Assembly (NCBI GenBank): GCA_965645245.1
Contig: OZ287084.1
Coordinates: forward strand, 620,001-684,000
Source: Massalongia carnosa
Lineage: Eukaryota
Direction: 5' to 3'
Length of the DNA: 64,000 nt
In this document: one piece after another, positions 52,495 to 58,900 of the stretch
Position numbering within the stretch: position 1 is the first letter of the stretch
Layout: the number at the start of each line of letters is the position of its first letter
Made by a program: the position numbers and the translations under genes
Notes under the pieces: model-generated
What the model was told of the DNA's origin: nothing
The model's input: the letters and a program-made list of their open reading frames with translations, nothing else
Database searches by the model: none

Positions 52495-54697
52495 CTATCG
52501 CCGCGCGCGTTGGGGGACTGGATTTCGAGCTCGGTTCAAAGGCCGAGCGTCTCTTTCGAAGGTGTTGGCTACAATAGGCCCGCTCACGCTCCCTTCACGA
52601 CCCAATTTTCGGCGCTTCAGGCTGTCTATATCCTCGCCACGGCTTGCAGGACGAGATTGATGCTCTGGATCATCCTCTTCACGCAAACGCTTGTTGGACG
52701 AGGCTGTACCATTGACATGCAATGGCGCGTAACTGGCTGGCAAAGGCCCTGACGCATAGGTATCAGTTGCTGAAGTTCCGTTGGAAACGCTGGCACGAGT
52801 ATCGCTTATTGAGTTGTATTGATTGCTCGACGGTGGGGCGCGGGGTGGGGTGTGGTATCCAGGCGTCCACTGGCTTTGTCCCCCTGTGGCGGTGCGGGGA
52901 GTTGCTCTGCCGGATCCATTTTGATGTGATGGGGATCCATTCATCTCAGGGGAAAGGTGAGGATGTTCCCCTTGCAATGATCCAAGGTTGGGAGCGGAAT
53001 TGTAGTTGGCATATGAGCCACGACTGGCACTGTAAGCAGTATTGCTGTCGTGTGGATATTCCGAATCATGTTCATGCTCCGCTTCTTCGTCACCTGCTCC
53101 GTGACCCACAGGGTCAGACGCTGGCCCATGGGCATAAGCTTCTGGCTTGTGATCACCATGCTCAATTTCTGGTCCCGATCCAGGCGCACGTGACGATGGA
53201 GGACCCATCTCATGTTTCAAATATTGGTTTGGTACTACGGGTCCACTGAGCCGCCCCATTCCCTGTGGCTGGACACCTTGTTGAGGCGCATATTGGGCCT
53301 GTTGCGTTGTAGCTGACGAGTACATTGGTCTCGAGCTGTCATAGGGTTGCTGGCTGGGGTATGGTTGCATGCTTTGCATGGCAGGACCCGGGGGTGTGGT
53401 TGCAGGTGTGTTCGGTGTGGAGTGGGCATGAGTATCGATTGCAAGAGGTTGTGTGCTTTGGACCCCGCCACCGATGTTCTGACCCCAAGTATCATACGAG
53501 CTTCCTTGGCTGTTCATACCAACACCGCTCGAGGCACTGGTGGGGGGGGTGGGGAAGGTATGTGCCCTGTCGAGGGTCGGTCTGGCTCCAGGGTGAGGCG
53601 CAATAGAATGAGGTGGTTGAGAGACGTGAGAGCCAACGGGCGTAGTCATCGAGTGATGATGGTGAAGCGACGGAGTCTGCGAGCCAGGACCTATCATCCC
53701 TTGCTGCTGCTGCTTGTTATCAAATTTACGACGTTCGGCCGCTGCCATGACAGCATTCGTCCGGTTTGAATTCGTGGGGTGATAGAGCAGCGCGCCGATG
53801 TTGTGCACAAACAGCGGATATAAAAGTTCCGTTATTTTCTCCTTATTTGCAAAGTCCAGCGCCCGATCAAAGGGTATCCTGACATAGAGTTAACGCCTGC
53901 ATCATCAATTATCCGTCAATTACATGCTTGCTTACCAAACCCCTTTAAGATGCATAGGACCTATTTTCACAACATGACGCAGCTTTTCGCTTTTCAATAT
54001 ACCATCCCGACGTCCTCTTGTCATCCCTGCAACATTAAGAAGTTTTGTGCCATTGATCATATGATTATCTGTCATTAAGTTAGTGATTAATCATTCCCCG
54101 TAAATGGGATGAGGCGAAGACTAATGGGCTAAATGAAAGTTCATGCCAAAGCTTACCATCTCGTCTTGCAACACATACACCCTTCGCCTCAACCTGAAAG
54201 CACATGCTCCCTTCATCTTCCCATAATGTGGCGGTTACTCGAGGTTTCATCCCCGGAGGAGCTATCTGACCGGTTGTGTCGTAGTTCTGTTGTGGATAAC
54301 CAGCTGCTGGACCTCCGGGTCCACCCATATAAGTGTGTTGTGGTTGCCCGCCCGGAGGCATTGCTTTCATCAGAAGATGTCAGTTCAATGTTCGGCAAAA
54401 TCATCTGGACTTGAAAGTACCTGGAAGGGGCAGCAGGCCAGAATTCATCTGGGGTCCCATGGACGAAGAAACAGGTTGTCCGCCGCCTTGCGGGGAGGTT
54501 ACGCCATTGGTATAAGCATACGGACCATACGTACTTGGCGATGGTGCATAACTGCCAGGTCCGGGTTGCAAGACGGAAGGTTGTTGTTGATAATGAGGAT
54601 AATGAGACATGCTACCAGCGGTGGTAGGTTGGGGCGCGTAAGACTGCGCAGCCGACATATGTGGCTGATGCGAGTCAATGTATTGTGGTTGGTTCAT
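52495..54697 (-). CDS. stuA: APSES transcription factor StuA/Asm-1, ~666 aa from the first AUG; exons 54697-54421, 54363-54157, 54068-53936, 53878-52495; frame stays open upstream to 55231
   Basis: [59 protein letters not shown]...[52 protein letters not shown] and [10 protein letters not shown]. Confidence 0.96.
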
Positions 54698-55231
54698 CGT
54701 ATTGCTGTATGGCTCAGCAATCGGAGCGTACTGGGAGATGCTCGAAGTTTGATGAGAATAGTCGGTGTGCTCCGTGGGTTCGTCCGGCAAACCTTGTGCC
54801 TGAGAGACTATAGTTTGGGAGGTGGGAGAGGGCGAAGGGGTTCTTAACCCAATTCCGGTTTGGGTATTGGAGTAAGAGGATGAGCTGGTCTGCGAGGATG
54901 GATACTGGTTACCAGGAGCGCTAGGGCTTGCCTCTATTATTCCGGCTCTTGATGAATTTGGGCCGTAGGAGGCGCTTGCAGCGTAAGATTGTGGTAAGGG
55001 CAGATTCGGGAGCCGATCACCAGAAAATAACGGTCGCTGAGAATAATGAGGATTGAACCAGGGAACGTCAATAGGACCTCGGGTGTGAACCTGGGAGATC
55101 GAAGGGAGCTCCAGCTTTTCGGTATTGGCGAGAACTGGCCTTGAGTGACCTGAACGAGAGAGGGCGCGAGAAAACACCAAATTTGACACAGGACTCTGAT
55201 TCTGCTGCTTCTCAACCAGACAAGCGGTTTC

Positions 55232-55958
55232 TCAGTCGTCCACGTTCTGCAACCGATTAATGACTGATTGCTCCGTAAACTTTGCTCGTAGCTTCAACGT
55301 GACTTTGGATCAAATGGAATCTCCACTCATGAAAATTGACTTTCAGAACCTAAGCAACACGGACTGCTAGATTCCGCCTGCCAGTAGCAACTCAAAGATC
55401 AAAAGTTCGATATGACGAGGTGTGGCGCGTGCTGGCACAGCTGGTGATTGAGCTTCGAAATGGATGTAGAGACACGTTAATCAGGCGATTGTACAAATAG
55501 TTGCCGCCGATGGTGCAACGCTTGGACTCTATAGGATTGCCGAATGCGCCGCGATGATGAAGATCGAAAAGTGCAACAGCGTGTGGCTCGTTTCCGGTCG
55601 TTAATGGGACAACTTCCAAAGCGGTTTGCTTTCGTGATGCAGGTGGATTGCAATGGATATACGCTTCTTTACAGCGCTTTGTCGGGATAGGCAAGTGTGC
55701 GAACTTCAAAGGTAATAATCGCTCAAGGGCGCGTCTATCGGGTACTGGCGTTTTTGAATGAAGAAAGATCGTGGATAGTCGTTAGTATCGTTTGCGTCTT
55801 GTTAACTTGTAGCCTTGGAGAAAACTTGGGCTCGTTAATTCTGCAGCAGATTTTTAGTCAGGCGCAAGCGGAATGCAGGTCTTCCGATAAGATAGGCAAG
55901 GTGAAGGCGAAGAATGTCGGGATGCGTACCTCGCTGCTGCTCATGGAGAAGAGGTCAT
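55232..55958 (-). promoter_or_regulatory. Putative stuA 5' leader: uORF1 (55958-55941, MTSSP*), intron 55929-55247, spliced uORF2 (55944-55930 + 55246-55232, MSSSENVDD*)
   Basis: GAG|GTACGC donor at 55929, TTAAT...TTGCAG acceptor ending at 55247, AUGA overlap of the two uORFs, and a pyrimidine-rich TSS-like tract near 56005-56055. The splice pairing is inferred. Confidence 0.5.
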
Positions 55959-58900
55959 GCAAAATGATTGCGCTCGACTTCAGTCGGAAACGCTCACTGG
56001 TGGACGAGGAGAGGGGGGGGGAGGGGGAAAGGATTTGGCAGTCGAGGAGGGAGGTTGGGCGATTTGTTGGTGATGGTGATCTGCTAGCGCGAAAACTTGG
56101 CGCGAACAGAACCGGCTTCCTGATATGATAGTGGATCTATTGGGTCTGATAGGAGATACGAGTCGGTGATAATCAATCCTTTTGCAATTTCCACTTTATC
56201 GGATGAGATGATGGAGTTGAAGCTGAAGTTGAAGATTTTTCAGATATTGATATCTGAACAGAGGCCGCCGTTCACGAAGTTGGTTTCAATTGGCCCAAAA
56301 CAACGAGCGGTGCAACGTCAATCTTCCCACCAAGTACTTTTACTGCTTTTTTGGGGTAAGTAATAAAAGATCCATACAGTGCCGTGAAAGCACAGACAGG
56401 CAGGGTCGAAGGTGACCGACAGCGCTGCAATGCGATGCGCTGCGGGAGAACGGGCCCTTTTTACATCGAATGCAGAATGCGGGACGGCGCGCCAGGTGCG
56501 CAGGGTAAGAATGGAAGGGAAAGGCAGTTAGTTGTCAATTTGACAACGATGAATAAAACGAGGTAACGAGTAAGGAGTGTCTAGACGCTTTTTAGGTTGT
56601 AGTAGAGGTTCGTCTAGAATGTGTACTCTGTACGGCCGATATGACCAGTTTACCTTTTTGACTGGGACTTTTCGCTCCACTTCTCCTTCTGTCTCTCTTA
56701 CGCTATCCTCCAACCGTTTCACTGATTCTCTAGACTATCGCTTGCTCTCTGTATCTGCCTCCCTTCGTTACTGAATTGCCATTTCATTATTAATTACGCA
56801 CTTTTTTTCTTTTGACTACGTTTCTCTATTTCGAGCGTCATGACTATGGGCGGGAAGGAAATTGTAGCTAGAAGGGCGGTGGTTTGTGTCAGGTGGAAGG
56901 CTTCGTTGACAAGCCAAGGCTTAAGCTACGGTATCTGTCTTACAAGCGTCGGCTTGCGTCTGGGCTGCAGCGGAATTGAGGTATTAGTAGGATGCAACCT
57001 GCAGGCAAGCGAAGAAACGACCCACTGTCGAATCAACTTGCAGGGACAAGCTTCTCAGGGAACCTTGTCGTCGTTCCTATAGGCGTGCAATCACGCCGTA
57101 AGAGAGCCAATCAGTCGCAGACGTTACATCAGTCCAATGGGAACGTGAGGCTGCCACCCCGGGCGCGGTTGTGGACGGTAGAAAAAAAGTTGGGTCAAGC
57201 TGATCCAAAATTCGGAAGGGTGTGTATGGGCGACTCGTGGTAGTGAAGGTTAAATTAGGGCAGTCGGACGTACAGAGTAGTAGGGGCAGAGTACGGAGAG
57301 CGGGAATTCCAAAAAATTCGATCTATACACGGGCGAAGCGAGTGTAAAAAGCTATGGGGTTTAAGATTGCCGGTGAGCATAATCGACACCAGCAATAAAT
57401 TAATCAATAACATTCTGATAGTCCCAAGACGATGGGATGCATGGAGGCACGAAAGGGTGAATAGTCCCCATGTTTCGACCGAAGCGGAAACAAAAGCAAA
57501 AGGATCATCTGTACTACTTCTGTACGGTACTTTGAACGTGGCATGAGAGGTGGAGATGGTGTTTTTGCTTTTCGTTTTTTTTCGTAACTAGTCTACAATC
57601 TGGCTGGCTAGAGAGAGTCCAGCGAGGGAAGGGACGGGACGCGATTTGAGGGCTTTCACGTTAGGATGACTCAGTCAGCGGTCATCTGAAGGAAGGGCCA
57701 TAATGATCAAATTCGTTCCCTTTCGTGATGATGATGATGCTCTTCTTCGAGAGGATAAATTTTAGCTGCTTGTCGACAAAGTTTGGATGAATTTCAATAT
57801 GAGCCCTGTTATTGCCTTAGATCTTTCAACTGACCCATTCAAAACCAGGTGTTAACGTAGTACAGTGTACTCTATTCAATACCGCCCTCGAATTCCGAGT
57901 CTCAACTCCTCGCTCCAACGCTCAACACCTAACACACCTCACGATATCTTCATATCGATTGAAACATCACTCAAGGCCGATCCCGGTTGGAACAGCCGGC
58001 CAGACTGATCGACCGCTGTCGTCGGCTGGGGCGTCGGCTGCCAAGGCTCAATTTAATTGACACGAAAAAGGGTGGCGCGGCGCTTGTACGCTGAAAAGAA
58101 AAGCCACCGATAAGGGAGTCCAGGAGCGACAACAAGTAAAGTATCAGTATCCACGCTGATGTTCGATGATGACCAAGACGATCACGATGACAAAGATTCA
58201 CCTTCAATTGCGAACAGTTGCCGTTTGGCCGTTTGGGCAAAGCGCCAACAATGCTGAGAATTTAGAGCTGTGAAACTAGAGCCGAGAGGGAAAAGCGAGT
58301 TATCGAATTGCCGCCAGTGGTGTAGAGAAGCGAGCAATGATTGGTTTCCTGGGAGCAAGGTGGATTCGATGCGTTGTTCAAACGAACCCTAGAACCCTTG
58401 AACCCTAGCAACGTTATCCTGGGTTGCGCCCTAGCACCGTCGAACCCCAGCCCTTGAAAGTCCCGGGGGACACGACGAAAACCACGGGCACAAAAAGGAA
58501 AGAAAACACGAAAACAAGAAAGAAAAGCTACAAGCGCCGCTTTTTCGGTGGAATGTTTGACTAGGTATGCTCTCTCCGGTCCAGATGTGGTCATGATTAC
58601 TCTATGTCGATATCGGATGCTGGATTGAACCCACCTGACAGAATTACCTCAAAGCTAAGACCAAAGACTGACGAGATTGCGAGTGACAGGAGCTACGTTT
58701 GGTAACGTGGCACAAGGACGTTGCATTTCGCTATTCCCCACCCCAATCATCACGACACGTCATAACCTCGTCCACTGTGCCAGGATCATGGTTTAAGGCG
58801 AGAGGCGTATGGGGAGGAGGTGATTTGGGAGGGGTTTGGAGGTGGAAGGAGGAATGATGAAGACTATCATCATCAATTTCAAGTAAGTAATCGGCGTGAT

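Follow-up and report, generated by a model that had tools for sequence, protein, structure and literature searches.

The StuA gene of Massalongia carnosa

The window analysed here, a stretch of 64,000 nucleotides from contig OZ287084.1 of Massalongia carnosa (positions are counted from its first letter), contains on its minus strand a gene whose spliced model, read from the annotated AUG, encodes 666 amino acids without an internal stop in four coding exons separated by three short introns. The parts of the gene model are the following.

54695-54697, minus strand: annotated AUG (Met-Asn-Gln) with the A at 54697, the proposed second start
54421-54697, minus strand: remainder of coding exon 1, beginning at the AUG and followed by the donor GTACTT at 54420
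54157-54363, minus strand: coding exon 2, after an intron of 57 nt (54420-54364)
53936-54068, minus strand: coding exon 3 with the core of the APSES/KilA-N domain, after an intron of 88 nt (54156-54069)
52495-53878, minus strand: coding exon 4 with the stop TAG at 52497-52495, after an intron of 57 nt (53935-53879)

The donors of the three coding introns are GTACTT, GTAAGC and GTAAGC. When the model is started at a CUG upstream of the AUG (see below), the predicted protein has 805 amino acids; in an alignment with its 832-amino acid homolog P0001, 658 of 837 columns are identical. P0001 matches the Pfam family KilA-N (PF04383) with an E value of 8e-9 and 35.8 bits (cut-off 23.8 bits). Exon 3 of the window alone scores 20.5 bits (E 4.5e-4), which is under the cut-off because the exon comprises part of the domain only. 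In an alignment of full-length homologs, residues of the KilA-N domain are invariant in all 22 sequences, and the matches carry the name cell pattern formation-associated protein StuA in several genera, including Aspergillus, Penicillium, Trichophyton and Lasiodiplodia. Both by its domain and by orthology the window gene is identified as a StuA/APSES gene.

Sequences and searches

A scan of metagenome contigs yielded 30 loci with DNA and from these 16 distinct extension sequences, the window included; one locus (L025) was excluded because its contig starts inside the extension. For pN/pS, periodicity, ATG counts and codon usage a set of 14 sequences was used, consisting of the window and 13 related loci, from which L016 and L020 had been dropped as near-copies of L015 and L011. 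Judged by the best match to named proteins, 8 of the 14 are lecanoromycete-like and 6 are closest to Aspergillus or Penicillium. The compared sequences are relatives, and counts such as 16 of 16 do not represent independent events. The alignment underlying pN/pS was protein-guided and is thus biased toward low pN; an ungapped block is free of that bias. Proteins were searched by a word-based method with the 178 residues of the open frame, and by profile searches of 1.84 billion representatives and of a collection of 5.8 billion.

The four sequence runs that were checked consist of contigs, three of them near-identical to the window, without joints; they carry no information on transcripts, and the assembly may have been built from them.

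An open frame without AUG

Upstream of the AUG the StuA frame remains open into a region with the following features.

54698-55111, minus strand: conserved coding extension, as judged from periodicity, pN/pS and homologs; 139 codons if the CTG is counted and 138 if it is not
55112-55114, minus strand: proposed non-AUG start codon CTG, Leu of the conserved block, CTG in 16 of 16 sequences
55115-55123, minus strand: putative conserved initiation context ACC GAA AAG (consensus ACC GRA AAR), near-invariant in its nucleotides and without third-position wobble
55115-55231, minus strand: 39 further in-frame open codons without conservation or periodicity, probably untranslated leader
55137-55150, minus strand: conserved nucleotide block GGTCACTCAAGGCC (consensus GGTCAYTCARGRCC), found in 8 of 8 lecanoromycete-like sequences
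55232-55234, minus strand: in-frame TGA, the upstream end of the open StuA frame
55310-55330, minus strand: short uORF of 6 codons and a stop, 216 nt above the CTG

The open frame was first pointed out in an earlier note on this DNA, which had described its extent back to the TGA, an AUG-less stretch from 54698 to 55327, and an in-frame CTG at 55219 and GTG at 55189 as candidate starts. As an observation this was right in all particulars. The sequence bears out 178 sense codons (55231-54698), and on the minus strand there is no ATG in any frame from 54698 to 55329, the next one upstream of the StuA AUG being at 55330. Within 54698-56500 the minus strand has 5 ATGs in all (55330, 55944, 55958, 56375 and 56466). 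The chance of finding 178 open codons is about 2e-4 (our own arithmetic, with 3 stops per 64 codons), and the 417 nt of the window that turned out to be conserved contain 0 ATGs versus 4.1 predicted from base composition. The open, ATG-less frame exceeds chance expectation.

The related loci are arranged likewise. In 15 of the 16 distinct sequences the frame is open up to an in-frame stop located 6-92 codons above the CTG (the remaining one, L027, runs off its contig), and in all 15 with such a stop no in-frame ATG is found between stop and CTG. Short uORFs 193-221 nt above the CTG are also present in L009, L010, L011 and L013; their peptides differ.

Conservation of the extension as protein

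The word-based search retrieved nine StuA-type proteins of 546-832 amino acids, five of them named as from lichen-forming fungi, all of which align over the extension (E 1.9e-68 to 2e-4). In an alignment of 10 sequences conservation begins at the block headed by the Leu codon and continues through RGPxDxPW, a stretch LPxLxLPQ and GLKTPSPSP; the extension is about as conserved as the region after the AUG, and the approximately 35 residues above the block are not conserved among the homologs.

The profile searches gave 119 matches among the 1.84 billion representatives and 96 in the 5.8-billion collection. The conserved block is present in 61 of these 96 StuA models. Among them are models with the name StuA from Eurotiales and Onygenales (Aspergillus, Penicillium, Paracoccidioides and Polytolypa), from Dothideomycetes (Phyllosticta, Didymella and Pyrenophora), from the Leotiomycete Monilinia, from Diplogelasinospora of the Sordariales, and from several classes of lichens; another set of matches adds Trichophyton to the first of these groups and Lasiodiplodia to the second. 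A segment ELPSISQV, which the earlier note expected in some Aspergillus StuA models, is indeed found there, for example in A. udagawae (P0024) and A. lentulus (P0139 and P0140), and in numerous further models.

At the level of codons, the whole extension has a mean pN of 0.38 and a mean pS of 0.71 in the 14 sequences; downstream of the AUG, exon 1 has 0.24 and 0.78, respectively. In the ungapped block of 21 codons that follows the CTG, first, second and third positions are variable in 6, 5 and 19 of the 21 codons, respectively. There are 24 columns with an invariant residue and at least 3-fold degeneracy, and 22 of them vary synonymously among the 14 sequences. The three measures together point to purifying selection on amino acids in the main frame. 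The codon-level conservation by which the earlier note wanted its proposal checked was found over the 139 codons next to the AUG (55114-54698), and of the 178 open codons only these look coding.

A gene on the opposite strand was considered as the cause of the conservation and rejected: a single plus-strand ORF of at least 80 amino acids (54227-54847) reaches into the extension, where it covers no more than the final 150 nt and leaves the conserved block at 54990-55114 free, and the periodicity fits the minus frame.

Pfam returned 0 families for the 139 residues of the extension at E values up to 1, and the top feature score in the ESM Atlas was 0.75, which is below a meaningful level. The structure predicted for the long form (P0001, with 22 aligned sequences) had a mean pLDDT of 38.2 and a pTM of 0.23, the DNA-binding domain being poor too; a prediction of this quality is uninformative as to whether the extension is ordered.

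The comparisons show that the extension is under protein-level constraint. The arrangement also reaches beyond this genome: lecanoromycete-like and Eurotiales-like loci have it in their DNA, and protein models with it come from most classes of Pezizomycotina.

The CTG at 55114

All 16 distinct extension sequences have CTG as the Leu codon at the head of the conserved block, each time with A at -3 and G at +4. This near-cognate codon in good context lies at the 5′ edge of the coding part: in the 12 codons of the ungapped block that precede it, first, second and third positions are variable in 9, 10 and 10 of 12 codons, without periodicity. As judged from these alignments, coding constraint begins at CTG 55114-55112.

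The two columns among the 24 mentioned above that are held to a single codon are this Leu CTG and a Thr ACC at -9 to -7. In these regions the share of CTG among Leu codons is 0.35, and the Thr codon of the start context is ACC in 14 of 14 sequences while other Thr codons vary. The second codon of the context switches between Glu and Gly, which argues for a constraint on the nucleotides rather than on the amino acids. The string ACC GRA AAR CTG GAG is therefore constrained at the nucleotide level, which is the behaviour of an initiation context and not of a peptide. The StuA extension most likely begins at the invariant CUG 55114.

P0001, the closest homolog, carries a Met in place of the window's CGC codon 18 residues above the Leu, and in P0004, P0005 and P0008 a Met is found 6-14 residues above the Leu. 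The Met in P0001 indicates that an AUG start exists in at least some close relatives. An AUG just above the block that some lineages use, or could use, fits a translated region, and it shows that reliance on the CUG as the only start is not universal.

From the CTG to the AUG

Between CTG and AUG the frame is open for 111-139 codons (333-417 nt) in 16 of 16 distinct sequences. None of the 16 spacers contains an out-of-frame ATG, and an in-frame ATG occurs only in L027 and L029, 8 codons before the AUG; in the other 14 the AUG is the first ATG after the CTG. In the 14-sequence set 2 ATGs are found in 5,406 nt of extension versus 75 in 3,360 nt after the AUG (the first 240 nt per sequence). By resampling of synonymous codons approximately 27.5 ATGs would be expected in the extensions, of which 2 are observed; P for single sequences ranges from 0.005 to 0.71, and the depletion is therefore a collective signal. 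In each of the 14 sequences the AUG itself is preceded by a purine at -3 and followed by A at +4. Its Met-Asn is invariant in 10 of 10 sequences and in 22 of 22 full-length homologs, and in the alignment of the latter it is the only invariant pair within the first 189 residues of P0001. A weak start from which an AUG-free stretch leads to a conserved AUG is the classical signature of leaky scanning.

These findings bear on whether one or two proteins are made. If the CUG-started 805-amino acid protein were the only functional StuA, AUG 54697 would specify an internal methionine and there would be one isoform. This would agree with the conservation of the extension in most Pezizomycotina classes, with the proper AUG just above the block in some lineages, from which little leaky scanning is to be expected, and with some Sordariomycete models that start inside the extension region (P0257, P0258). 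It would not account for the avoidance of ATGs of all frames over 333-417 nt and their frequency thereafter, for the singular invariance of Met-Asn, or for the purine at -3 of the AUG throughout; moreover, near-cognate codons are normally leaky. A single long form seems unlikely to us, and we favor initiation at both the CUG and the AUG.

Transcript-like contigs and annotated N-termini

In three contigs from an Aspergillus-like relative (L027-L029) a frame of 792-855 codons runs on without a break. These contigs lack the three introns present in the coding sequence of the window, and because of the missing introns they are read as assembled transcripts, although no poly(A) was seen at their ends. 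They contain the same extension, have no in-frame AUG above the block, and show a leader of up to 1,068 nt with several uORFs.

The models in the databases disagree on where StuA begins. The 61 block-bearing models have 1-586 residues above the Leu, with 45 different values, and 8 are without a start Met, some of these being flagged "partial" by the source. For A. lentulus there are two models with two different N-termini, and several Penicillium models start with the peptide of an upstream uORF. The AUG is the start of 22 of the 96 models (21 recognized by pattern match plus P0212, which the pattern missed), and the remaining 13 start elsewhere. Many species probably have an incorrect or incomplete StuA N-terminus in their annotation.

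An AUG could also be joined to the extension by splicing. The one candidate for this in the window is the ATG at 55330, which is in frame 0, and an intron of 177 nt with the donor GTGGAG and the acceptor CAG 55152-55150, where a pyrimidine-rich tract ends in CAG just before 55149, would keep the frame; many gene predictors build such introns, and the stuA leaders of Aspergillus nidulans are said, from the work of Miller and co-workers, to contain introns. The donor GTGGAG, however, is unlike the real donors of the gene (GTACTT, GTAAGC, GTAAGC), and no CTRAC branch site is seen in the last 50 nt. An ATG is missing from the corresponding position in L001 and L009, the closest of the relatives compared as DNA; their nearest one is 538 nt upstream in L001 and 221 nt upstream and out of frame in L009. 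Above the CTG no AG is common to one position across the loci. No in-frame AUG is present above the block in the intron-less contigs L027-L029, the predicted N-terminus occurs in 45 lengths in the 61 models, and the invariance of the CTG and of the ACC would be left unexplained. We consider a spliced-on AUG exon very unlikely and keep to initiation at CUG 55114.

The leader above the CTG

Over the 45 codons above the CTG the entropy by codon position is 1.46, 1.62 and 1.68 bits, which indicates no periodicity. The conserved block GGTCAYTCARGRCC lies in L013 in a frame other than that of the CTG owing to an indel of 1 nt, and an in-frame TGA then follows; the block is therefore taken as not coding. 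Three loci, L010, L015 and L021, have an upstream ATG whose out-of-frame uORF extends over the CTG; ribosomes would be diverted past the CTG if these ATGs are in the mature leader.

The two codons named in the earlier note as starts, CTG 55219 and GTG 55189, lie in this leader. Both are in frame, the frame is open, CTG 55219 has G at +4, and initiation there would give an extension of 170-178 residues and a protein of about 840 amino acids. Neither has a purine at -3 (T for CTG 55219, C for GTG 55189), the 39 codons between the TGA and CTG 55114 show neither conservation nor periodicity, the sole conserved piece among them is out of frame in L013, and in relatives in-frame stops occur 6-27 codons above the block, among them at 6 codons in L013, 16 in L015 and 19 in L001. 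We dropped both codons as starts; that either of them serves as such is highly improbable.

That the whole extension is an untranslated leader conserved as an RNA or DNA element, and that only the 666-amino acid protein exists, would suit the lack of an AUG in the extension, the curated StuA entries that start at the AUG (22 of 96 models) and the long and regulatory nature of stuA leaders, but has next to no chance of being right, since it is already contradicted by the three-base periodicity (6, 5 and 19 of 21) and since synonymous sites are near saturation (pS 0.71) with the amino acids kept, the frame is open over 111-139 codons in 16 of 16 sequences, and no conserved RNA structure was found around or after the CTG (consensus fold of -4.77 kcal/mol, 0 of 8 pairs with compensatory change).

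Two proposed StuA proteins from one mRNA

We propose that the stuA mRNA encodes two proteins from one frame, a CUG-started one of 805 and an AUG-started one of 666 amino acids, and consider this likely. Ribosomes would pass the uORFs of the leader and then meet CUG 55114-55112, whose context, with A at -3 and G at +4, is strong; a fraction would initiate there with the initiator Met and synthesize the 805-amino acid StuA, whose first 139 residues would bear the deeply conserved motifs LELPSISQV, RGPxDxPW and GLKTPSPSP. The other ribosomes would scan through 417 AUG-free nt and start at 54697, yielding the 666-amino acid form that databases usually annotate. In initiation a CUG is usually less efficient than an AUG, and the long form could therefore be the minor one.

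StuA is thus probably longer than annotated and present in two forms. The comparisons show that the extension is coding, where its 5′ edge lies, that the CUG and its context do not vary, that no AUG leads into the frame and that the spacer is AUG-free; the use of the CUG, the coexistence of both forms and any functional difference between them are what we infer. The core of the earlier proposal, an AUG-less coding extension with a near-cognate start and leaky scanning to two isoforms, has gained comparative support; its starts had to be replaced and its sizes revised in part, the short isoform remaining at 666 amino acids and the long one shrinking from about 840 to 805, with an extension of 139 rather than 178 codons. 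The extra motifs foreseen in the long form exist as conserved sequence blocks, for which a role in interaction is putative.

A wider reading goes further: StuA/Asm-1 would be primarily CUG-initiated across the Pezizomycotina, with an N-terminus that has been missed for three decades, and the choice of start would be a developmental switch resembling that of C/EBP LAP/LIP, operated via start-codon stringency and uORFs and producing forms of differing activity (e.g., in partner binding through the N-terminal motif). We put it forward tentatively, as a possibility that we would not call probable.

Significance and relation to known systems

Few regulators of fungal development, secondary metabolism and virulence have been studied as much as StuA, with work on Aspergillus, Trichophyton, Alternaria, Fusarium, Penicillium, Sclerotinia and Metarhizium. 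If translation does start at a CUG 111-139 codons above the AUG, then expression, tag or promoter constructs based on the AUG would remove or disrupt a conserved N-terminal region, and the inconsistent annotations (22 AUG-start and 61 block-bearing models of 96) could be corrected by one rule. StuA would then follow CPC1 as the second clear case in filamentous fungi of a master transcription factor that gains extra coding capacity and a further layer of control through near-cognate initiation.

Wu and Miller are said to have found in 1997 that stuA of A. nidulans is translationally controlled by a micro-ORF in the stuA-alpha leader; a single StuA protein starting at the AUG was reportedly assumed, with no conserved CUG-started extension. 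The system reported there and the present one belong to one gene family; both have a long leader and short uORFs and are regulated, in the present case as a proposal, through translation. The study of start-codon stringency in Neurospora by Wei et al. in 2013 (JBC) is reported to list further candidate extensions.

In the accessible literature that was searched, no link between StuA and non-AUG initiation was found. The terms stuA, asm-1, NCU01414 and APSES are absent from the text and 10 supplementary files of the CPC1 study as available (Ivanov et al., 2017; PMC5487733), and a study of Candida Efg1 that names StuA and CUG has no start-codon link in its title and abstract. The phrase "N-terminal extension" beside StuA refers, in the accessible part of a review (PMC3563288), to brlA; other papers with the phrase were assessed by title and abstract. 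As far as searched, the StuA extension is new; near-cognate-initiated extensions of the CPC1 type are already known.

The brlA gene of A. nidulans, a regulator in the same conidiation pathway as StuA, has an alpha and a beta unit with a uORF and a form with an N-terminal extension of 23 amino acids, according to the portion of the review that was available (PMC3563288). A uORF and an N-terminally extended form are thus common to brlA and, as proposed, StuA. In brlA, unlike in StuA, the extension is described there as coming from a second transcript and starting at an AUG, without non-AUG initiation.

Among animal regulators, c-Myc is known as a CUG/AUG isoform pair. For C/EBP, the isoforms LAP and LIP arise by leaky scanning (as cited in the available text of PMC5487733). 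The proposed long and short forms of StuA are analogous to both in that one mRNA would be read in one frame from a weak upstream start and a downstream AUG, and in that the ratio of long to short form, which in c-Myc and C/EBP can respond to start-codon stringency, might do so likewise. c-Myc and C/EBP are proteins unrelated to StuA, with documented functional differences between their long and short forms, and C/EBP uses AUGs only.

Closest to StuA is CPC1, the product of cpc-1 and homolog of GCN4, for which a near-cognate-initiated N-terminal extension was described in Neurospora crassa and other Pezizomycotina and initiation was demonstrated in vitro (Ivanov et al., 2017, mBio; PMC5487733; here and below as far as its accessible text goes). 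There a signature of this kind was taken as evidence of near-cognate initiation, with positions -3 and +4 being crucial. The StuA case, as read from sequence comparison, resembles that of CPC1 in many respects. Both concern a transcription factor of the Pezizomycotina with a long, uORF-bearing leader and an AUG-less in-frame extension of more than 100 codons; in both the main frame is under purifying selection and a conserved near-cognate codon is flanked by A at -3 and G at +4; and in both automated annotations include the extension with an unsettled start (PMC5487733). They differ in that CPC1 has several candidate codons (ACG, AUU and CUG) and StuA a single invariant CUG, and in that the extension of CPC1 spans, and thereby bypasses, an inhibitory uORF (PMC5487733). 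In StuA, unlike in CPC1, conservation is strongest at the proposed new N-terminus, and the spacer down to the AUG is AUG-free in every frame (compare PMC5487733).

The leader above the CTG

Above the CTG, the proposed non-AUG start of StuA, one short stretch of the leader is conserved:

55137-55150, minus strand, 14-nt block GGTCAYTCARGRCC, 22-36 nt above the CTG

The block is kept at the matching place in all eight lecanoromycete-like sequences (the window and the related metagenome loci L001, L009, L010, L011, L013, L015 and L018), and in L013 it lies out of frame; the leader outside it is not conserved. The block may be a binding site or another leader element.

The approximately 1.7 kb above stuA in the window are poor in ATG, apart from three AUG-started upstream open reading frames (uORFs):

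55310-55330, minus strand, uORF of 6 codons
55858-55944, minus strand, uORF of 28 codons
55941-55958, minus strand, uORF of 5 codons

Short uORFs are also found in relatives, 193-221 nt above the CTG, with different peptides. In L010, L015 and L021 an upstream ATG opens an out-of-frame uORF of 62-141 codons that spans the CTG and terminates 47-115 nt beyond it; if present in the mRNA, such a uORF would compete with initiation at the CUG.

A uORF beginning with Met-Arg-Leu-Leu-His is common to two Penicillium-like loci:

L021, 608 nt above the CTG
L024, 364 nt above the CTG

In five StuA models from Penicillium (P0187-P0189, P0191 and P0192) the AUG of this uORF has been joined to the extension, the AUG-less coding stretch between the CTG and the annotated AUG, by the splicing of the gene predictor. 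The Met-Arg-Leu-Leu-His uORF may be a regulatory element conserved in the leader of Eurotiales.

The extension and other StuA models

Opposite exon 1 of stuA there is a further open frame. Its overlap with the extension is confined to the final 150 nt, and it probably arises as a side effect of the low-complexity coding sequence on the other strand:

54227-54847, plus strand, stop-free frame of 206 codons

The cluster of the Aspergillus udagawae StuA model (P0024) also includes Aspergillus proteins of 295-299 amino acids labelled NPP1 domain protein; the one such member examined (P0131) does not resemble StuA. Either an artefact of the clustering or a fused gene model among the members seems to account for this.

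Parts of the extension are also present in StuA/Asm-1 models of Sordariomycetes, from Purpureocillium (P0257 and P0258), Diplogelasinospora (P0234) and Seiridium (P0249). Since both Purpureocillium models begin at a Met within the extension, directly ahead of the LPSLPLP stretch, the sequences suggest that different starts have been fixed in different lineages.
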